Origin: a virus
Lineage: Duplodnaviria; Caudoviricetes
IMG/VR virus record: IMGVR_UViG_3300017784_003727
Span: 1-24,450 of that record
Length of the DNA: 24,450 nt
Strand: one strand, 5' to 3'
Shown: positions 167 to 16,209 of the stretch, in pieces
Layout of the letters: each line of letters starts with the position of its first letter
How positions within the stretch are numbered: the stretch's first letter is position 1
The notes under the pieces: generated by a model
The model's database searches: none
The model's input: only the letters and a program-made list of their open reading frames with translations
What the model was told of the DNA's origin: nothing
Made by a program: the position numbers and the translations under genes

Positions 167-934
167 ATGAAGTCTTTTAAACATTTCATTAAAGAAAAAT
201 ATGTAAAACCAATTAAGCCATCAAGCGGTGCAATTGAGGTTGGTGATAGCATTAATGCTTTTGGTCGTGGCGCATTTAATTCAACGACTATGGATCTTGG
301 GAAATACGGAAGAGCTGGCGCTGAATATGGCGTAAAGAAACTATTAGGTCGTGATACAACATATCAGCAAGAGTTAGACCAAGAAAAAGAAAAAGATACA
401 TCAGCCCAAGAAAAGAACCCTACAGCATATAGTGCTGGTGGTTATACAGCTGATGCTGCAGCGATAGCAACTGGAGTTGGTGGTTTGGTTAAAGCTGGTA
501 CTAAATATGGTGTTAAACATATGGCTAAAGATATTTTATCATCAAAAAGAGTTGGCGGAGTATATGGTGACGATGCTGGAGAATACAGCGTTAACACTTT
601 AATTAAAAGAACCAAAGATAGAACTCCTGAAGAAATTCCTGTCAAAAATGTTATAACTAAAAACAAGGAATTGGGTACAAAAGAGGGTAATTTTGCGGAT
701 AATGTATATAATCCAAATCCCGATTTTAAAGTAAGAGCAAATAAATCAAACACTCAATATCCTATATTAACAGATAAAGATGGATATATAGTAGATGGCT
801 CACACAGAGTTGCTAAAACGTATTGGCAAAATCCAGAATCAGCTATTAAAGCTCAACAACTTTCTCCAGCAGATTTTGATGCTGCCAAAATTAAAAATCC
901 TATTCACAAATGGTTAGCTTCTAGAGTAAAATAA
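167..934 (+). CDS. Putative internal head protein with C-terminal ParB/Srx-like domain
   Basis: N-terminus MKSFKHFIKE resembles the T4 IP capsid-targeting sequence; Gly/Ala-rich middle; YPILTDKDGYIVDGSHRVAK ParB-N motif. Confidence 0.7.
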   Translation: MKSFKHFIKEKYVKPIKPSSGAIEVGDSINAFGRGAFNSTTMDLGKYGRAGAEYGVKKLLGRDTTYQQELDQEKEKDTSAQEKNPTAYSAGGYTADAAAIATGVGGLVKAGTKYGVKHMAKDILSSKRVGGVYGDDAGEYSVNTLIKRTKDRTPEEIPVKNVITKNKELGTKEGNFADNVYNPNPDFKVRANKSNTQYPILTDKDGYIVDGSHRVAKTYWQNPESAIKAQQLSPADFDAAKIKNPIHKWLASRVK

Positions 935-8084: not shown

Positions 8085-8550
8085 TGATCCTATTTTAAAA
8101 AAATCTTGCGATGTTTTTTCATTTAGTAATCCCCCTATTGATCCTATTGAGTTTGCCAAAGACTTGGTTGAGACAATGTATGGTTATAATGGTATTGGTC
8201 TCTCTGCCAATCAAGTTGGAATACCTTATCGAGTATTTGCTATGCGTGGTCATCCTGAAAACTTCGTTTGTTTTAATCCAAAAATAGTTCAGCCCAGCAC
8301 AGCAGAAATTCTTCTTGAAGAAATATGCTTGACTTATCCAGGTCTTACAGTTAAAATAAAAAGACCACAACATATCCGTGTGCGTTTTACTATGGCTAAC
8401 GGAGAAACTGTGACAAAACAATTCACTGGTATTACTGCTAGAACATTTCAACATGAAATAGATCATTTAAATGGTGTACTATTCTACAATAGAGCTAATA
8501 GTTATCACAGAGAAAAAGCTTTTAAAAAACAAAAATTTGGTGAAATATGA
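8059..8550 (+). CDS. def: Peptide deformylase
   Basis: GIGLSANQVG (motif 1), EICLT (variant of EGCLS), QHEIDHLNG (HExxH). Confidence 0.92.
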   Translation: MKLNLVNHNDPILKKSCDVFSFSNPPIDPIEFAKDLVETMYGYNGIGLSANQVGIPYRVFAMRGHPENFVCFNPKIVQPSTAEILLEEICLTYPGLTVKIKRPQHIRVRFTMANGETVTKQFTGITARTFQHEIDHLNGVLFYNRANSYHREKAFKKQKFGEI

Positions 8551-9086
8551 ATATTTTTTATATTGATCATGATCCCGTTCAAGCAGCTATTTGGATGGTA
8601 GATAAACATGTTGTAAAAATGATTTTAGAATCAGCACAATTACTTTCAACTGCTCATCGTATTCATGATGGTATAGAAACTATGGGTAAAACTCCTACAG
8701 GTAGAAATGTAAAACGTTGGACATTACCAGATGCTAGAGAAACAGTTCTTTATTCAGCTACGCACAACAATCATCCTTCAGCTATCTGGTGTCGTAAATC
8801 TGTTGAGAATTATAATTGGTTAACAGATCATATGTTTGCTTTACTTGCAGAATATACATATCGTTATGATAAAGAGCATAAAGTTCAAGGTGAGTTAAGC
8901 TACATGTTACAATCTCCGCCAAATAATTTGCGAGAATATGATATAACACCAATGCCATCTGCAATGGCAAATGAATACAAAATATCAGATAATTCTCTTA
9001 TAAATTATCGTAATTATTACAAAAAAGGAAAAACACATTTGTTTAATTGGAAAAGACGTCAACCTCCAGAGTGGATTTATGAATAA
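8547..9086 (+). CDS. Pyrimidine-dimer DNA glycosylase (DenV)-related protein
   Basis: MNIF...DKHVVKMILESAQLLSTAH...TH.NHP..W...NY.WL....EY..RY...H pattern of the widespread DenV-like family. Confidence 0.7.
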   Translation: MNIFYIDHDPVQAAIWMVDKHVVKMILESAQLLSTAHRIHDGIETMGKTPTGRNVKRWTLPDARETVLYSATHNNHPSAIWCRKSVENYNWLTDHMFALLAEYTYRYDKEHKVQGELSYMLQSPPNNLREYDITPMPSAMANEYKISDNSLINYRNYYKKGKTHLFNWKRRQPPEWIYE

Positions 9087-9276
9087 AGTGCAAAAAAATA
9101 AAAAAATTATGGAACTTATGCGAATAATTGAAAACCAAATTATGATGTGTGATAATCATCAAGATTTAATTCTGATGGCTTCCGCAATGATTGTAACTGC
9201 CAAACAAATACTAACAACAAATGTTGGTAAAGAAGGCACAAAAAGAGTATTTGAAGAGGCAATTTATTATGACTGA
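9079..9276 (+). CDS. Hypothetical protein
   Basis: Overlaps both neighbours; helical composition. Confidence 0.7.
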   Translation: MNKVQKNKKIMELMRIIENQIMMCDNHQDLILMASAMIVTAKQILTTNVGKEGTKRVFEEAIYYD

Positions 9277-9652
9277 TATGTTTAATAGTGTAGTTGAGTT
9301 TCAAAAGGCGTTCGGACAACTTGTTTCTGATAAACCTGAGTTTCCTGATAGTAAAACTAGAATTCTTCGAATGAGACTTTTGTCTGAAGAATTTGTTGAA
9401 TATAACGCCGCCGAGCATGATAATAATCTTATTGAGGTTGCAGACGCTCTCGCTGATTTGATTTATATTGCATGCGGAACTGCAGCTTCTTATGGTATAC
9501 CTCTCAATGCTATTTTTGAAGAGGTGCATCGTTCAAATATGGCGAAACTAGTTGATGGTAAACCTCTTAAAAGAGAAGATGGTAAAATTATTAAACCAGA
9601 AGGTTGGAAACCTCCAGATATTGAAAAAATTATAAAAGAGACAAAAAAATAA
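9269..9652 (+). CDS. MazG-like all-alpha NTP pyrophosphohydrolase (DR2231-type, possible dUTPase)
   Basis: V.EF..AF, LLSEEFVEY, EVADALADLIY, EVHRSNMAK, DGKIIKP motifs; start set to ATG 9269 (GAGG upstream). Confidence 0.85.
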   Translation: MTDMFNSVVEFQKAFGQLVSDKPEFPDSKTRILRMRLLSEEFVEYNAAEHDNNLIEVADALADLIYIACGTAASYGIPLNAIFEEVHRSNMAKLVDGKPLKREDGKIIKPEGWKPPDIEKIIKETKK

Positions 9653-9660
9653 AAAAATAC

Positions 9661-9689
9661 TTTACTTATTCGTCAAATTGAGTTATTAT
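9661..9689 (+). promoter_or_regulatory. Sigma70-type promoter for the modification operon
   Basis: TTTACT-17 bp-TATTAT (overlapping TATAAT at 9687), intergenic; GGAGG RBS before 9732. Confidence 0.7.
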
Positions 9690-9731
9690 AATTGTATACA
9701 TATATTATGAAATTGTCTTTTGGAGGGCTAA

Positions 9732-11036
9732 ATGGTTGAAATAATTGTAAGAAAAAAAATAGATTCTGAAGAAACTCTTGGTACTTTTATTACTATGGAG
9801 CAATATAGTAATCGTTTAATTACTGAAGATTGCGATCTTTATGCAGAAACTGTTGATGGAGTTAATAGTGAAGAGAATATAATCTTCAAGTTTCGCAAAA
9901 ACGTTTTTACTAAAGAAGAAATGGATTTGGCATACGCCGGACTTCGTGAAGCAGCAACTGAATCACAAAATCGTGGTATGGCGGCAGGACCACGTGGTGA
10001 ACAGCTAGGGCAAGAAGGTAGAAGCAATCGTGATTGGGTAACTCCTGAACAAACTGAAATACTTTCTTTTATAGCTCGCCCTTTAAATACCTTTGAAGAT
10101 GGAACTACGATCGAATCAATTCGTGAAAGCCACAAGAAAGGTTCTAAGGAAGAAACTCGTGGTCAGGTTTGGCTTCGTTCAGCAGTAACTAAAAAATATC
10201 CTGAATATCATGGTTGGTTTGAACAGTGGCTTGTTGGTTTGCATAATCTTTCTCGTGAAAATCAAATTGCTGAAGCAAATTATGTAATTGAAAATTATAT
10301 CTCAGAAACAAACTATGCTCAGTCTGTAATGTCTGGTATTGCTGGTTATTTTGATCGTTATCCTCGTATTCCTCATGGTCGTACCTGTGCATACAACGAA
10401 AAAAATCCTGAAAAATTTAAGTTAGCTTTTCCTTATCTTAATAAATTGAACGAAATGTTTAGAGAACATTTGCCACTTCGTTGGGGTAATCAACGTCGTC
10501 AAGCGGATAAACTTGATCCAAGGTTTCTTGTTTCAGATACTGTATTTACTACACTTACTGTGAACCATAATTGGCGCACTGCTTGTCATCGCGATGCTGG
10601 TGATTTACATGAAGGATTCTCTAATATTTGTGGTATCACTGGTCCTGAAGGAAAGGGTTGGAAAGGCGCAGAATTTCTTCTTCCCGAATATCGTATTGCT
10701 ATTGATCTTCAACCTGGAGACATGTTGTTGGTAAATAATCATGGTGGTATTCATGCCAACGATGAATTAATTGGCGAAGACAATGATCGTTTGACATTAG
10801 TTTGTTATTTCCGTGAAAAAATGGTAGAACTAAAACTTTGGGATTACGAAATGCTTCGCAAACAATTTGTTGAAGAACGTCGTCAAAATAAAAATCATAA
10901 ATTTTATCGTCCTCTTTGGAATGGTGTTTCGCCTGGAATGTGGGATGAACAAGAATGGTTTGATTATATGGAGACTCATAATATAGAGGATCCTTACAAG
11001 AAAAAAGCATCAGCGAGCTTGGATGCATTTTTCTAA
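9732..11036 (+). CDS. TET/JBP-family 2-oxoglutarate/Fe(II) dioxygenase
   Basis: FTTLTVNHNWRTACHRDAGD (HxD), IDLQPGDMLL...GIHAN (distal His), RLTLVCYFRE (2OG-binding Arg). Confidence 0.85.
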   Translation: MVEIIVRKKIDSEETLGTFITMEQYSNRLITEDCDLYAETVDGVNSEENIIFKFRKNVFTKEEMDLAYAGLREAATESQNRGMAAGPRGEQLGQEGRSNRDWVTPEQTEILSFIARPLNTFEDGTTIESIRESHKKGSKEETRGQVWLRSAVTKKYPEYHGWFEQWLVGLHNLSRENQIAEANYVIENYISETNYAQSVMSGIAGYFDRYPRIPHGRTCAYNEKNPEKFKLAFPYLNKLNEMFREHLPLRWGNQRRQADKLDPRFLVSDTVFTTLTVNHNWRTACHRDAGDLHEGFSNICGITGPEGKGWKGAEFLLPEYRIAIDLQPGDMLLVNNHGGIHANDELIGEDNDRLTLVCYFREKMVELKLWDYEMLRKQFVEERRQNKNHKFYRPLWNGVSPGMWDEQEWFDYMETHNIEDPYKKKASASLDAFF

Positions 11037-11737
11037 TGTGCGGAGTGCTTGGCATCACAATTGCCGACTTTAACGAAAAAGATTACGAATTAGTTCGTAA
11101 TCTCTTTATTCAGTCCATGATTCGTGGTAAACATGCGACTGGTGTATCTTATGTTAAAAATGGAAAAGTCCACACAATTAAAGATCCTATTCCAGCCGAT
11201 AAATTTATCAGTAAACAAATTTTAGAAACTTGGAAAAACGAAGATGGTAATCTTTATTGTATTGGTCATGTTCGTTATAGCACTTCTGACTTACGTTTCA
11301 ATCAACCTTTTTCAACTGATGAGTTGGGCATTGTGCATAATGGAGTTATATCCCAAGAACCTCCTAGCACGTGGCTACAGTTATTTGGTTATGAAACAGA
11401 AACAGCCAACGATTCAGAACTAATTTTAAAAGCCTACGAAAATAACGATAATCCATTGGAGATATTTAATCTTGCTAGTATGGCAGTTTGTGTTTTGCAT
11501 GCTGATAAAAGATTGTCAGCTTTTCGTAATCATGAAAGACCGCTATATTATTATTCTGACGAAAGAACTACAATTTTTGCATCAACTAAAGACATTCTTG
11601 CTCGATCAGGGTTTCTTACAAAAACAAAAACTAGAATGTTTGAAATTTATAATGTAAATAATTTTAAGCTCAGTCATTTTGAAGTGGCTGATGATAAGTG
11701 GCTTAAAGAAACATTCAATATTGAGGATTTACAATGA
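11036..11737 (+). CDS. Class II (Ntn) glutamine amidotransferase
   Basis: N-terminal MCG nucleophile, RG.HATG, GHVRYST, HNG.I, NDSE motifs. Confidence 0.92.
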   Translation: MCGVLGITIADFNEKDYELVRNLFIQSMIRGKHATGVSYVKNGKVHTIKDPIPADKFISKQILETWKNEDGNLYCIGHVRYSTSDLRFNQPFSTDELGIVHNGVISQEPPSTWLQLFGYETETANDSELILKAYENNDNPLEIFNLASMAVCVLHADKRLSAFRNHERPLYYYSDERTTIFASTKDILARSGFLTKTKTRMFEIYNVNNFKLSHFEVADDKWLKETFNIEDLQ

Positions 11738-12657
11738 AGTATTATGACCCAAAAACTTTTACCTATGGTTTCGAAATAGAATGGGGCGACATTGATCGCA
11801 AAATGCAAATTCCTGAAGAACTTGGTTCTTGGGAATATTGCGAAACAGATATTATTAATGAGAGGGAACCTTATCGTGGTCTTGGCTCAGACCCGAAAGG
11901 AATTAATCCACCAGTTGGTGGTGAAATTAATATGAAGCCGACAAAGACTTGGCAGCATCAAGTTGATAACATCATGAAGGTCAAGGAACTATTTGATGCG
12001 CATGGGACTTCTCCCACTGCTGGTTGTGTTAACCATGGTCATTTACATATTCATGTTCCAGGATTAATTGAAGATATTGATGCATTGAAGAGACTTATGC
12101 GTTACATAAAAGAAAATCAACATATTGTTATGGATCGTATTTTTCAATTTAGAATTTATCCTAATATGGAACAAACTAAAACTGCTAAAACATATTTGAA
12201 ACATGATGGTGGGCGAATTGCACCTGATTGGTTGCTTGAGAACCTTGCGACTGTTCCTATTGATTTTGAAGATTGGCTTCGTGTACACTGTTGTGGTAAA
12301 AACGCCAAGACGCTCTCTCGCCCTTTCAGATATGGTATACACACATATGCATTGAAGAACTCAAAAACTGTTGAGTTTCGTTGTTTTCGTAGTTCTATTG
12401 ATCGTCGTGAAATTGAAGACAGCTTTAAGTTTGCTACTGCATTTATGGATGCTGCTCTTAATAATGGTCCAGATGTTCAAGAAATTTTGTTGGCGAATGA
12501 TTACAAATTTCCACCATTTACATACGATCATGAAATGTATATGGGTTGGGAAAAAACCAAACACCAAAGAACTGATCGTAATTTAGATAATGAAACAGCA
12601 CAAAAACTTGGTTTGACCGTTCTTGGAAAACAAAGAAAATTTCTAGAAGCAATATGA
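11734..12657 (+). CDS. Amidoligase (glutamine synthetase-like COOH-NH2 ligase)
   Basis: TYGFEIE, GGEIN, HGHLHIH, TVEFR motifs; coupled to a GATase. Confidence 0.8.
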   Translation: MKYYDPKTFTYGFEIEWGDIDRKMQIPEELGSWEYCETDIINEREPYRGLGSDPKGINPPVGGEINMKPTKTWQHQVDNIMKVKELFDAHGTSPTAGCVNHGHLHIHVPGLIEDIDALKRLMRYIKENQHIVMDRIFQFRIYPNMEQTKTAKTYLKHDGGRIAPDWLLENLATVPIDFEDWLRVHCCGKNAKTLSRPFRYGIHTYALKNSKTVEFRCFRSSIDRREIEDSFKFATAFMDAALNNGPDVQEILLANDYKFPPFTYDHEMYMGWEKTKHQRTDRNLDNETAQKLGLTVLGKQRKFLEAI

Positions 12658-13280
12658 TATATAAAACACTTGACAAAAATGATTATTTAAGGTATAATAA
12701 TACTTTAAAAGATAAAGATTTTAAATTTTCTAAAGTTGCTGTAGGAATGTGGGACTTTATGAAAGCTTGGGATGAATGGCCTCCAAGAGTTCTTGAAGAA
12801 AATGGACAAATTATTTCCGTTTGTTTTATGAAAATATCTAATCAAGTTAAATCTAAAGTTCTTTTTATATCAAACATCTTTACACCTGAAAATGGTAGAG
12901 GTAAAGGTACTGCTAAAGAAATGTTGAATAGGAATATCTTAGAAGCAGTTTGTTTTGGTGCAACCAGCATAAGATTAGATTGTAATAAATCTGCTCTTGG
13001 ATTTTATGATAAAATAGGAATGACTTATTGGGGAGCTACTATAAGTCATTCTATGTTTTGTGATTTGCCCATTAATAATAAAGGAGTTGATGGATTTTTA
13101 GATTATAAGAATTTATCATCATTAGAAATATTAAATTCTTATCCGCAAGAATTAAGAGCTGCTAAAATTAAATGGATAGCTAAAAAAGTAAAAAAACATA
13201 AAGAATTTGATTTCGGCCACCCTTCAAGATATAATGAATTTGTAAATGATTTTTTCAATGGAAATCAAATTGCATCGTAA
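12654..13280 (+). CDS. GNAT-family acyltransferase
   Basis: IFTPENGRGKGTA (acetyl-CoA motif A), N..ALGFYDKIG (motif B). Confidence 0.85.
   Translation: MIYKTLDKNDYLRYNNTLKDKDFKFSKVAVGMWDFMKAWDEWPPRVLEENGQIISVCFMKISNQVKSKVLFISNIFTPENGRGKGTAKEMLNRNILEAVCFGATSIRLDCNKSALGFYDKIGMTYWGATISHSMFCDLPINNKGVDGFLDYKNLSSLEILNSYPQELRAAKIKWIAKKVKKHKEFDFGHPSRYNEFVNDFFNGNQIAS
12670..12698 (+). promoter_or_regulatory. Perfect sigma70 consensus promoter inside the GNAT gene
   Basis: TTGACA-17 bp-TATAAT. Confidence 0.75.
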
Positions 13281-14250
13281 AACAGATTTTATTAATTGGT
13301 ATAAGTGGTCGTTGTCGATTAAAGATTGCGATCCAGCTATTTACATGACTAACTATTTGTTCGATAGATTTGAACATAATAAGGAGCAAAAATTATGGAT
13401 TTCTTGGATTTATGGCACAACATACTATTTACCAACAACATGGGTAATATGGAATGAATTCCCCGACATGGAACTTGTTGGAGTCAAAAGACTCCGAGAG
13501 TGGAACAATAACAATTACAAACGGCTCCGTTATCAAACTGACACCAAGTGGAACAAAGGTCATCTTCCAGCCCAGTTCGAAAGTTACAAGCAGTGGGTTG
13601 GAGATAAGACTCAGGAAGAAAAGTTCTACAGTGGATTCGTCAACGGAAATCCCAAGCACAATTTCAGAAATCTCTACGAAGAAGTAAAGACTAATTTTCA
13701 TAAGTTCGGTCGTTACTCAACTTGGTTTTATTTACAAACACTAAAGCAGTGTTGCAACCTACCAATAGAACCTGATAGTCTTATGCTTGAAGATTATGAC
13801 GGTAGTCGTTCACATCGTAATGGTTTGTGTATGGCTCTTGGACTTGATGACTGGTATAATAAGAAACTCGATATTGAACAGTTAGCTTATCTTGACGTTC
13901 AGTCTTATTTGATTCTTGAAGAAGTTCGAAAAGAGTTTTCGAATACAGATTATTTCGATATGGAAACTTGTCTTTGTTCTTTCAAGAAATTATTCAGAGT
14001 AAAGCATGGCCGTTATCTTGGTTACTATCTTGATCGTCAAGCTGAAGAAATCACTAAATGTGAAAGTGATGGTTGGATTGGTATTGATTGGCAACCAATG
14101 TGGGATGCTCGAACAGAAACTATAAATAATAAACTGTTGACTGATAAAATAAATAATAGTAAAATGGCATTATATACACAAAATGGTATTCTTGATGCTA
14201 CAAAACTATTCGAACAAAAAAAAGTCGGTTTAGAATCTTTTATGGAGTAA
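13246..14250 (+). CDS. Amino acid:DNA transferase / alpha-glutamyl-putrescinyl thymine pyrophosphorylase family
   Basis: DCDP, YG.TY, FGRYS.WFYL, GSRSHRNGL, ETCLCSFKK, RY.GYY.DR motifs; start may be ATG 13258. Confidence 0.8.
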   Translation: MIFSMEIKLHRKTDFINWYKWSLSIKDCDPAIYMTNYLFDRFEHNKEQKLWISWIYGTTYYLPTTWVIWNEFPDMELVGVKRLREWNNNNYKRLRYQTDTKWNKGHLPAQFESYKQWVGDKTQEEKFYSGFVNGNPKHNFRNLYEEVKTNFHKFGRYSTWFYLQTLKQCCNLPIEPDSLMLEDYDGSRSHRNGLCMALGLDDWYNKKLDIEQLAYLDVQSYLILEEVRKEFSNTDYFDMETCLCSFKKLFRVKHGRYLGYYLDRQAEEITKCESDGWIGIDWQPMWDARTETINNKLLTDKINNSKMALYTQNGILDATKLFEQKKVGLESFME

Positions 14251-14252
14251 AA

Positions 14253-14435
14253 ATGTTAATTTCACAAAAAGAATACTTAGAAAGATTAAAGGTTTTTGTA
14301 GAAACAAATTTAACAAAAGAAAATAAATTTCCAATTGGTATGTTTAATATTTCTAGACATTGGAATAAAAATAAAAAACAATTTGATGAATTATTAAAAG
14401 AACAAGGAATTAATGTCGAGAAAATAAAAGAATAA
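14253..14435 (+). CDS. Hypothetical protein
   Basis: GGAG RBS within the upstream gene end; fills gap in operon. Confidence 0.65.
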   Translation: MLISQKEYLERLKVFVETNLTKENKFPIGMFNISRHWNKNKKQFDELLKEQGINVEKIKE

Positions 14436-14445
14436 GGAATCAATA

Positions 14446-14982
14446 ATGAAAATATTTGCTATTGGTGGTGAGCCTGGATCTGGCAAAACTACCTTGATGA
14501 GACAAATGATCAATCATCTATCAGTTGAACCAAAATATAATTCTTACAAATTAGTTCCATATCTTCAAAAAGACAACATCTATATTTTAGGAAAATATGA
14601 AGATGGTGAACTATTTTCTGGTACAGATCGTATGAGTATGGCTGTCCAACCAGAAGCTATTAAATTTCTTGCCACTTTACCATCTGATTCAATAGTTTTT
14701 TTCGAAGGTGATCGTTTATTTACAGCTTCATTTTTAGAACATTGTTTAGAAAATTATGATTTAAAAATTATCTATTTGTCAACTAAAAAAGAAATTCGTC
14801 AAAACAGATATAAAGATCGTGGCAGTAATCAAAATAAAACTTGGTTACAAGGTCGTGAAACTAAAATTAATAATATATTAACAAACATGACTCTCATGTT
14901 TTGTACGTACAAATTTGAAAATAATACTTTTGAAGATCAAAAATTAATTTTTGATTTAATTTATGCTATGATTAAGGAATAA
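14446..14982 (+). CDS. P-loop nucleotide/DNA kinase (candidate 5-hydroxymethylpyrimidine kinase)
   Basis: GGEPGSGKTT Walker A, LGKY....SGTD, FEGDRL, R...RGSNQ; adjacent to aG/PT-PPlase. Confidence 0.8.
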   Translation: MKIFAIGGEPGSGKTTLMRQMINHLSVEPKYNSYKLVPYLQKDNIYILGKYEDGELFSGTDRMSMAVQPEAIKFLATLPSDSIVFFEGDRLFTASFLEHCLENYDLKIIYLSTKKEIRQNRYKDRGSNQNKTWLQGRETKINNILTNMTLMFCTYKFENNTFEDQKLIFDLIYAMIKE

Positions 14983-14987
14983 TTTAT

Positions 14988-15368
14988 ATGGTATGTAATT
15001 GTACAAAAATGTCTGAAACAAAATCAAATTTTAATTTTTCGGATAAATCTAAAAATATTTCATATAAATATGATGAAAATCTTATAATCTCAGATTTAAA
15101 AAACTATATAGATAACACATATAATGAACATTATATGACTGAATTTAAATCTATTGAGTGTTTTGATGCTTGGATTGCTCTTGGTGAATCTACACCAACT
15201 TTTAGAAATACTGCTATTAAGTATCTTTGGCGTTACGGTAAGAAAAACAATAACGATAAAAAAGACTTGATGAAATCACTACATTATATTATGATGTGTT
15301 TATACGTTGACCACTATAAAAATAATAAATTATGTCCAAAAACAAAAGGAATAGATAATGGAAATTAA
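14988..15368 (+). CDS. DUF3310-like protein (T7 gp1.7-related, possible nucleotide kinase)
   Basis: HY....IECFD...F...AIKYLWRYGKK...DL.K..HY pattern. Confidence 0.75.
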   Translation: MVCNCTKMSETKSNFNFSDKSKNISYKYDENLIISDLKNYIDNTYNEHYMTEFKSIECFDAWIALGESTPTFRNTAIKYLWRYGKKNNNDKKDLMKSLHYIMMCLYVDHYKNNKLCPKTKGIDNGN

Positions 15369-16209
15369 GATTGATCTTGAGATATTGAGAAAACGTAAGC
15401 TTTTTGTAGCCACACCAATGTATGGTGGTCAGTGTGCTGGTATGTTTACTCGTTCTATAGCTGATTTGTCTGCTATTTGTGCACAAAATGGCATCCCACT
15501 TCAGATGTATTTTCTTTTCAATGAATCTTTAATTACTCGTGCTCGAAATTATTGCGTTGATGAATTTATGAGATCAGATTCAGAACATTTAATGTTTATT
15601 GATGCTGACATTGGATTTAATCCACATGATGTTATCGCAATGATGTCGATGCAGGCTAATGAAGAAGAAAAATACAATATTATTGGTGGTCCTTATCCAA
15701 AGAAATGTATTTCTTGGGAAAAAATTAAAATGGCTGTCGATAAAGGCATTGCTGATGAAGATCCTAATGTTCTTGAAAAATTTGTTGGAGATTATGTATT
15801 TAATCCAAAAACGAATCAGGGTAGCATTCAAATTTCAGAACCTTGTGAAGTTCTTGAAATTGGAACAGGTTTCATGATGGTTTCTAAGTCAGCGATGAAG
15901 AAATTTATTGATTCTTATCCACAACATATGTATCGTCCTGATCATATTCGCACTGATGCTTTCGATGGTTCTAGAGAAATTGCAATGGCTTTTCAGGCTG
16001 AAATTGATCCAAAATCCAAGCGTTATTTGTCTGAAGATTATTGGTTCTGCCAAAAAGCTCAAGAAATTAATCTCAAAACTTGGTTTTGTCCATGGATGAA
16101 GATGCAGCATGTTGGAACTTACATTTTCGGTGGATCACTTGCTGATCTTGCCTCCATTGGTGCAAGTGCGACAGCTGACCCAAGCAAGCTCAAGAAAAAG
16201 AAAGCTTGA
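15358..16209 (+). CDS. GT-A fold glycosyltransferase-like protein
   Basis: VATPMYGG, SLITRARN, LMFIDADIGF (DxD), GTGFM, SEDYWFC, HVG motifs. Confidence 0.78.
   Translation: MEIKIDLEILRKRKLFVATPMYGGQCAGMFTRSIADLSAICAQNGIPLQMYFLFNESLITRARNYCVDEFMRSDSEHLMFIDADIGFNPHDVIAMMSMQANEEEKYNIIGGPYPKKCISWEKIKMAVDKGIADEDPNVLEKFVGDYVFNPKTNQGSIQISEPCEVLEIGTGFMMVSKSAMKKFIDSYPQHMYRPDHIRTDAFDGSREIAMAFQAEIDPKSKRYLSEDYWFCQKAQEINLKTWFCPWMKMQHVGTYIFGGSLADLASIGASATADPSKLKKKKA

Follow-up and report, generated by a model that had tools for sequence, protein, structure and literature searches.

The 24,450-nucleotide stretch analysed here at its full length (the window; IMG/VR record IMGVR_UViG_3300017784_003727) is the T4-like replication region of an uncultured phage. 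At 9732-14982 on the + strand it holds a six-gene cassette running from a TET/JBP dioxygenase to a P-loop kinase. Judged by homology and gene neighbourhood, these six genes likely encode a post-replicative pathway that turns some thymines into N-acylated 5-aminomethyluracil. That the cassette serves thymine hypermodification of one kind or another is highly probable. For the particular route that we favour, in which thymine (T) passes through 5-hydroxymethyluracil (5hmU) and phospho-5hmU to 5-aminomethyluracil before amide ligation and acetylation, the chances appear slightly better than even. The architecture of the cassette has already been published and its product was not identified there; the assignment of its glutamine amidotransferase to its DNA transferase is added here. 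The genes of the cassette are:

9732..11036, + strand: TET/JBP Fe(II)/2-oxoglutarate dioxygenase, 434 residues, ending SLDAFF (PF12851, E 8.8e-17, above cut-off)
11036..11737, + strand: stand-alone Ntn (class II) glutamine amidotransferase, GATase (PF13522, E 4e-12)
11734..12657, + strand: amidoligase of the glutamine synthetase (GS)/glutamate-cysteine ligase (GCS) fold (PF12224, E 0.012, below cut-off; fold by structure comparison)
12654..13280, + strand: GNAT acetyltransferase (PF00583, E 7e-7)
13246..14250, + strand: amino acid:DNA transferase, AADT (aGPT-PPlase2), 334 residues, ending LESFME (PF18724, E 4.5e-25)
14446..14982, + strand: P-loop kinase, Ploopntkinase3 (PF18751, E 2.8e-12, at cut-off)

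A sequence-only reading of the same DNA had named these genes, together with a DUF3310 gene and a glycosyltransferase (GT)-like gene, and all of them are present on the + strand where it placed them. TET/JBP, GATase, GNAT, AADT and DUF3310 score above their own Pfam cut-offs, and the kinase scores at its cut-off. The genes at 9732 and 13246, on whose family membership that reading had staked its claim, are assigned to PF12851 and PF18724 as it proposed. Its core idea, that the TET enzyme oxidizes a base in DNA, the kinase activates it, the AADT substitutes it and further enzymes tailor it, is supported by homology and context; of the two substrates that it left open, T and 5-methylcytosine (5mC), T is much the more likely.

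The GATase had been taken for a later tailoring enzyme, whereas the evidence favours a supply of ammonia to the AADT, with which it co-occurs and on which it is predicted to dock. IMG/VR loci were retrieved with a TET query (46 loci) and an AADT query (the best 80 of 158 viral stretches matching the profile; 417 match that of the amidoligase). Sixty-seven distinct loci span both TET and AADT, and in the 62 whose AADT is at least 40% identical to that of the window the GATase is always present (62/62), the amidoligase in 57/62 and the GNAT in 53/62. The GATase is found in none of the five loci with distant AADTs (24-31% identical), and in 41/41 when the count is restricted to loci retrieved with the TET or AADT query. 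C2, R30-G31, R80, N102-G103 and D126 are invariant in 42 GATase sequences, presumably as the Cys nucleophile, the Arg, the Asn-Gly oxyanion motif and the Asp of the enzyme.

The complex was predicted with three chains (the GATase as partner, the AADT and the amidoligase) in three runs with three controls. The GATase scored 0.61 (runs of 0.74, 0.61 and 0.00), with a partner pLDDT of at least 81, and the best control scored 0.00; the mark for this score is reached by 116/157 solved and 2/215 mismatched pairs, counts that hold only roughly for this three-chain job. The runs share at least 1% of their contacts. Every confident contact is to the AADT and is made through the active-site face of the GATase, involving GATase residues 1, 28-33, 81-83, 103-109, 166-169 and 183-186 and AADT residues 40-48, 70-82 and 278-284. 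When the AADT was swapped out and the amidoligase retained, the score fell to 0.00. A PDB sequence search with the AADT profile found no resembling entry, which makes it unlikely that the prediction reproduces a solved complex. The GATase thus modelled likely works with the AADT as its ammonia donor.

The AADT and ViI gp247 share 27% identity (E 2e-29). E240 and C244 of the former, invariant in 55 sequences, align with the motif ETxxC in M6 gp51 and ViI gp247, the profile alignment to M6 gp51 being weak (probability 1%). In ViI gp247, the conserved Cys and Glu are essential (PMC8989533). Tailoring sets differ among AADTs that are 75-80% identical; that they are scattered within one subfamily is the sole use made of a quick tree, in which the references have long branches. 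The kinase has an intact P-loop (GEPGSGKT), belongs to PF18751 rather than PF18748 or PF18747, and is 27% identical to M6 gp54 over 143 residues (pairwise E 1e-5), with no BLAST match to ViI gp243. Its Pfam family is shared with Gordonia phage Wooper gp4, which lies beside a TET and an AADT, and by this homology it is likely a 5hmU-DNA kinase.

The amidoligase was identified mainly by its modelled fold (pLDDT 90.5). With VIA-align, the best 18 rows are all of the GS/GCS/PafA-Dop fold, the top one (1tt4) having a Z of 10.7 and an r.m.s.d. of 4.3 over 220 aligned residues, whereas unrelated rows have Z of at most 5.7; the best Foldseek E is 2.6e-3. The metal/ATP residues of the ExE, E, H and E-x-R motifs (E14, E16, E64, H103, E214 and R216) are invariant in 39 sequences, and PF12224 matches 19/39 amidoligase relatives at E of 0.05 or less. 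A PDB sequence search with the amidoligase profile gave nothing meaningful.

The company that this amidoligase keeps suggests what it acts on. At locus L152, a 76%-identical amidoligase and a 53%-identical GNAT are followed by a pyridoxal phosphate (PLP) enzyme, which shares 47.5% identity with ViI gp226, and by a distant AADT; there is no GATase. Phage Simon combines a 26%-identical amidoligase with an M6-type AADT (40% identical to gp51) and a flavin adenine dinucleotide (FAD) enzyme whose identity to the FAD oxidoreductase of PaMx11 is 41.6%; the 60.9-kb genome of this phage has no PF13522 (GATase) match. Locus L220 adds a TET and a ParB-like gene to the amidoligase/FAD-enzyme/AADT set of Simon, also without a GATase; no other loci came up when the Simon amidoligase was used as query. 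ViI gp226 and PaMx11 gp47 each give a base that carries a primary amine (PMC8989533). Three upstream sets thus accompany the amidoligase; as two of them are known to yield amines, the simplest reading is that GATase and AADT together form a third amine source. The amidoligase likely acylates a DNA-borne amine, and the GNAT, which belongs to one of three interchangeable types in relatives, likely performs N-acetylation, to judge from its family.

A second type of amidoligase was also seen (L105:2661-5106, L121, L208-L219, L205 and, in Simon, L141:6980-8393). A gene resembling low-molecular-weight protein tyrosine phosphatase always follows it, and it often occurs with a GT-B-like gene bearing a C-terminal tail of the clamp type described below. 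In L205, both types of amidoligase stand in tandem.

The TET enzyme matches PF12851 with 61 bits against a cut-off of 34.9, and H286, D288, H341 and R354, which make up the iron triad HxD...H and the 2-oxoglutarate Arg, are conserved in at least 95% of 56 sequences. It belongs to a long-insert, T4-like subfamily, and is 40% identical over residues 190-364 to a ParB-linked TET, to which it adds extra inserts and a C-terminal extension. TETs 75-82% identical head either AADT-kinase cassettes or a TAGT glycosyltransferase alone. Phage T-dioxygenases from GATase/kinase/AADT neighbourhoods convert T to 5hmU in vivo as well as in vitro (PMC13229309). The window contains no match to a hydroxymethylase or a C5-methyltransferase, as the sequence-only reading had noted. 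Neither PF00303 (thymidylate synthase/dUMP hydroxymethylase) nor PF00145 (C5-methylase) is found in any of five long relatives (0/5 each), three of which carry ThyX, including G001 (162 kb, 98% complete); the PF00303 search does detect the thymidylate-synthase-family gene of the modification cluster of phage Simon (E 2e-22). Relatives with ThyX and without PF00303 or PF00145 apparently make ordinary dTMP, so that the TET would be needed to supply 5hmU. Thymine is likely a far better candidate for the substrate than 5mC.

T4 gp43 binds the clamp, gp45, through a C-terminal tail. Tails of this kind, defined as an L-D/E-x-F-F-type motif among the ten C-terminal residues, occur in 57/58 TET and 53/68 AADT sequences, in gp43 (5/5) and in the TAGT glycosyltransferase (6/6), compared with 5/295 unassigned ORFs. 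In the window, TET ends in SLDAFF, AADT in LESFME and gp43 in TLENFFS. The tail is also present in 3/4 of a GNAT type found without the amidoligase; it is absent from the GATase (0/48) and from the GT-A-like protein (0/51). TET and AADT thus likely carry predicted polymerase-like clamp-binding tails. A precedent, in a different enzyme, is T4 alpha-glucosyltransferase, a DNA-modifying enzyme that co-purifies with gp45 (PMC13216743). Clamp binding is described in that source as not the main determinant of its modification share, whereas the tails of the window are predicted binders.

The favoured route would begin in finished DNA, where the TET/JBP enzyme would very probably hydroxylate T to 5hmU. 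The kinase, by homology, would convert 5hmU to 5-phosphomethyluracil. As for the M6 and ViI enzymes, the AADT would form an adduct between Cys 244 and C6 together with an exocyclic methylene, and the nucleophile would plausibly be ammonia from the docked GATase, giving 5-aminomethyl-dU. The amidoligase could then, using ATP, join a carboxylate to this amine, most simply the gamma-carboxyl of glutamate, and the GNAT may acetylate the free amine that remains. The polymerase-like tails of TET and AADT would let both enzymes ride on the gp45 clamp, and the purpose of the pathway would likely be protection from host nucleases. In its most complete form the proposal is more tentative, and we hold it somewhat short of an even chance. 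There, this AADT subfamily would be a two-subunit, glutamine-dependent amidotransferase acting on DNA, in which the docked Ntn-glutaminase passes ammonia directly to the transferase and 5-aminomethyluracil arises in a single step, a GS-fold ligase would then form an amide such as N-acetyl-gamma-glutamyl to give an undescribed base, and a ParB-independent TET would work with the AADT on the clamp.

Several observations weigh against this route. The tail is absent from the amidoligase (0/42) and the kinase (0/61) and rare in the GNAT type of the window (2/17), though the model places all three on DNA. Only 1/20 gp55 sequences have it in the last ten residues, and the tail pattern was written after the tails had been seen. 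The 62 loci come from related phages and are not 62 independent events. A score of 0.00 came from one of the three complex runs, and the calibration was not based on three-chain jobs such as this one. Among AADT positions with at least 90% conservation across 51 GATase-linked rows, the 19 at the interface are kept at 0.29 in 7 distant GATase-less rows and the other 163 positions at 0.38, a weak difference. L152 and L220 are represented by fragments (9% and 28% complete, respectively), and their genomes may hold a GATase elsewhere. ParB is missing from the window cassette, and in E. coli some clade C1 enzymes that lack ParB were inactive (PMC13229309). Finally, the carboxylate donor and the order of the last two steps are guesses, and this genome was examined within the 24,450-nucleotide window only.

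With regard to ParB, the ORF list and Pfam show no ParB-like ORF between 9269 and 16209, and the clamp or the TET inserts may replace it. About 8 kb upstream of the cassette, two ORFs (window 167-934 and 966-1541) have a ParB/Srx-like DGxHR motif, similar basic N-terminal leaders and no Pfam match. We take the leaders to be of the kind found in T4-like internal head proteins, and the two products could be packaged proteins or unlinked TET activators. In addition, ORFs of 430-490 residues lie between GNAT and AADT in 31/60 spanning loci, duplicates counted (for example L068:8686-10026 and L124:7839-9323), and are missing from the window. Their ends look nuclease-like by eye and two have a weak ParB_N match below cut-off, making them candidate homing endonucleases or ParB-type activators.

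The alternative that survives best, which we nevertheless consider unlikely, is that the AADT transfers intact glutamine or a similar amide that the Ntn-hydrolase then cleaves on the DNA, or that GATase, amidoligase and GNAT build an off-DNA donor for transfer in one step. The pairing and docking of GATase and AADT fit this equally well, and GATase, amidoligase and the window type of GNAT lack the clamp tail, as would be expected of enzymes of free metabolites. However, the kinase is tail-less too, so that a missing tail does not imply action off the DNA. The differing tailoring sets that accompany AADTs 75-80% identical are easier to understand if tailoring follows transfer, and in L152 the amidoligase and GNAT have as their neighbour a type of decarboxylase shown to act on DNA adducts (PMC8989533).

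It is less likely still that the AADT attaches an amino acid such as Gly, Ser or Glu, whose free carboxyl is amidated by GATase and amidoligase with ammonia from glutamine before acetylation. A GATase paired with an amidoligase is the textbook expectation, the two genes are adjacent with a 4-nt overlap, and GS-fold enzymes use ammonia. Moreover, every characterised AADT takes an amino acid or a polyamine as its substrate (PMC8989533, PMC13458397). Nonetheless, 5/62 loci retain the GATase without the amidoligase, amidoligases without a GATase stand beside carboxyl-removing enzymes, and the complex model puts the GATase on the AADT.

A 5mC substrate, provided by the host or by an unlinked methyltransferase and leading to a cytosine derivative, is very improbable. 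Phage T-dioxygenases do oxidize 5mC in vitro as well (PMC13229309), Methylophilales phage Melnitz-2 combines a C5-methylase with a TET and a related kinase, and the window is only part of its genome. Against this, the cassette region has no methylase, the five relatives, one of them 98% complete, have no PF00145 match, and AADT and kinase homologues have been characterised on 5hmU only.

Returning to the favoured pathway, its genes are bounded by others that differ in their behaviour among relatives:

9269..9652, + strand: MazG-like/PRA-PH nucleotide pyrophosphohydrolase (PF01503, E 4e-19)
14253..14435, + strand: 60-aa ORF, missing from the list of the sequence-only reading, with near-identical copies only (L051, L052)
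14988..15368, + strand: DUF3310 protein (PF11753)
15358..16209, + strand: GT-A-like protein with a DAD motif at residues 82-84 (no Pfam family above cut-off; Anp1, E 0.0098)

Gene junctions from TET to the GT-like gene range from -35 to +10 nt. Relatives show a fixed slot, with MazG on one side and DUF3310, GT and gp45 on the other, and swappable contents starting with TET. Thirty of the 46 TET loci are distinct with at least 700 nt downstream; 16 of these continue with the GATase, while a TAGT glycosyltransferase is carried by 6 and a distant AADT by 4, with another pair in 2 and other contents in 2. The MazG-like gene is present whichever cassette follows, and lies elsewhere in the genome in Cr30 and DLP6. 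The DUF3310 gene is kept with every cassette type, and the GT-A-like gene lies at most 1.2 kb upstream of gp45 in 55/56 distinct loci. DUF3310 and GT-A had been listed in the cluster, whose stated span also takes in MazG; all three fall outside the swappable cassette. The DUF3310 and GT-A-like genes belong with the clamp gene, beside which they are conserved, rather than with the cassette, and the 60-aa ORF is probably dispensable.

That the terminal GT-A enzyme glycosylates the modified base within the pathway is the least probable alternative and was rejected: its gene overlaps DUF3310 and follows the kinase without a large gap, but it stands by gp45 whatever the cassette, phiM12, without any PF12851 match in its entire genome, carries a 45%-identical homologue in the gp46-gp45 interval, the gene is apart from TET in Cr30, and the protein lacks the tail that the TET-associated GT has (6/6). 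Since the gene is fixed by gp45, occurs in TET-less phiM12 and is apart from TET in Cr30, the cassette extends from TET to the kinase, 9732-14982.

The GT-like protein is likely a GT-A enzyme on its motif and weak family leads only. D82-x-D84 is invariant in 42 sequences, and an Atlas neighbour with PF03452 on 32% of its members is a weak lead. Its single-sequence fold has a pLDDT of 33.6, too low to assign a fold, and a PDB sequence search with the GT profile gave nothing meaningful. The gene (15358-16209) is strongly conserved upstream of gp45, also in phiM12-like phages, and may act separately in the glycosylation of DNA or protein. In GenBank, one distant homologue carries the label ‘dpG-synthase-like’; no paper behind this label was found and the label is unconfirmed.

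The block was said to be inserted in the replication module, and it does sit between gp46 and gp45 in a T4-like arrangement. The gene order of the window is uvsW, gp55, gp47, gp46, peptide deformylase, a denV-like gene, the block, gp45, gp44, gp62, regA, gp43 and gp41, with names taken from the ORF list, Pfam and homology with annotated phages. Most relatives likewise keep the denV/Pyr_excise-like gene (8547-9086) immediately upstream of the slot. By TET identity, the nearest cultured phages are Stenotrophomonas DLP6 (45%) and C48C1 (44%) and Caulobacter Cr30 (41%). Cr30 (L003:9001-17894) has the same long TET subfamily, an AADT, a TAGT-like gene and a kinase nearby. In L223-L225, L011, L036 and L050, the slot holds ViI-like cassettes with a TET, a methyltransferase-like gene, a PLP decarboxylase, a distant AADT and a kinase; L050 has two AADT-like genes.

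The genes had been placed behind one promoter, and two promoter-like sites do not agree with this:

9653..9731, + strand: 79-nt gap between MazG and TET, with a sigma-70-like candidate TTTACT-17-TATTAT at 9661-9689 and a Shine-Dalgarno-like GGAGG
12670..12698, + strand: candidate internal promoter TTGACA-17-TATAAT inside the GNAT coding start, the sole 12/12 + strand sigma-70 site in the window

The first lies between MazG, which ends 79 nt before TET, and TET itself, leaving MazG upstream of it; with a second site inside GNAT, a single operon behind one promoter was rejected. Sites matching at 10-12/12 occur at the position of the MazG-TET gap in many relatives, and none where MazG abuts TET. 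The site within GNAT is kept at 10-12/12 and at the same offset in 12/15 rows of relatives with the GNAT type of the window, these rows being related and one near-identical to the window. It uses minority codons (CTT, 39% of Leu; GAC, 17% of Asp), which hints at a constraint at the DNA level, and is a candidate promoter for AADT and kinase. Promoter-like sites are not enriched in the window (48 found, compared with 43.3 +/- 6.2 in shuffles). A near-palindromic GTATAYATAC (9690-9705), a possible operator, is found again in many relatives, where it likewise separates the promoter-like site from the TET start. RNA runs contained just 6-10% of the words, in scattered short contigs, and are uninformative on expression, promoters and habitat.

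Related neighbourhoods have been predicted before, as the sequence-only reading had suspected. Clusters of TET_JBP, kinase and aGPT-Pplase2 have been published from metaviromes (PMC8989533) and T-dioxygenase activity has been shown (PMC13229309). Like the window, the clusters of Lee et al. have TET_JBP in place of a dUMP hydroxymethylase beside 5-HMUDK and aGPT-Pplase2, and T to 5hmU was proposed. Some also hold amidoligase and amidotransferase genes, whose roles and product are left open in the portion of the paper available, unlike the assignment made here (PMC8989533). The 5mYOX clade C1 of O'Toole et al. likewise has a linked GATase, PF18751 kinase and AADT, and the window TET has a DRYPRIP motif in common with 7 tested T-dioxygenases, so that its likeness to the clade is one of motif and neighbourhood (PMC13229309). 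Those of the tested enzymes that were compared are of ~210-335 residues and many require ParB, whereas the window TET has 434 residues, long inserts, a C-terminal extension and a clamp-type tail in a cassette without ParB. Its extension and insert motifs are in none of the 12 supplement files of that paper, and its text, as available, does not reconstitute the downstream steps (PMC13229309).

The characterised pathways of ViI, M6, PaMx11, SP10 and phiW-14 use a dUMP hydroxymethylase, which the window and the five relatives lack. The PaMx11 5-acetylaminomethyl-dU pathway (gp46 AADT, gp47 FAD enzyme and gp48 GNAT; PMC8989533, PMC11472151) resembles that of the window in its kinase, AADT, proposed 5-aminomethyl-dU and GNAT. 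It differs in making 5hmdU at the nucleotide level and drawing the amine from glycine by the FAD enzyme, whereas the window has TET priming, no FAD enzyme, and an added GATase and amidoligase. The serine:DNA transferase ViI gp247, with its catalytic Glu and Cys aligned, is the closest characterised AADT among those compared; in ViI its partners are a PLP decarboxylase and 5hmdU made before replication, with no GATase, while the window AADT is paired with a GATase. In a literature search that left most subscription journals outside its reach, we found no report of the product of such a cluster or of GATase-fed amination by an AADT.

The comparative pattern and the docking model together yield specific, testable roles, namely ammonia as the nucleophile of the AADT and a peptide-like amide on DNA. 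If true, this would be a new DNA base, made by a new amidotransferase that acts on the DNA polymer, with enzymes that place amines and amides on thymine; the pairing of a glutaminase with a transferase would be a new way of putting nitrogen onto DNA. The cassette is common in uncultured T4-like phages and bears on their escape from host nucleases, and viral DNA modified in this manner may be under-sequenced.

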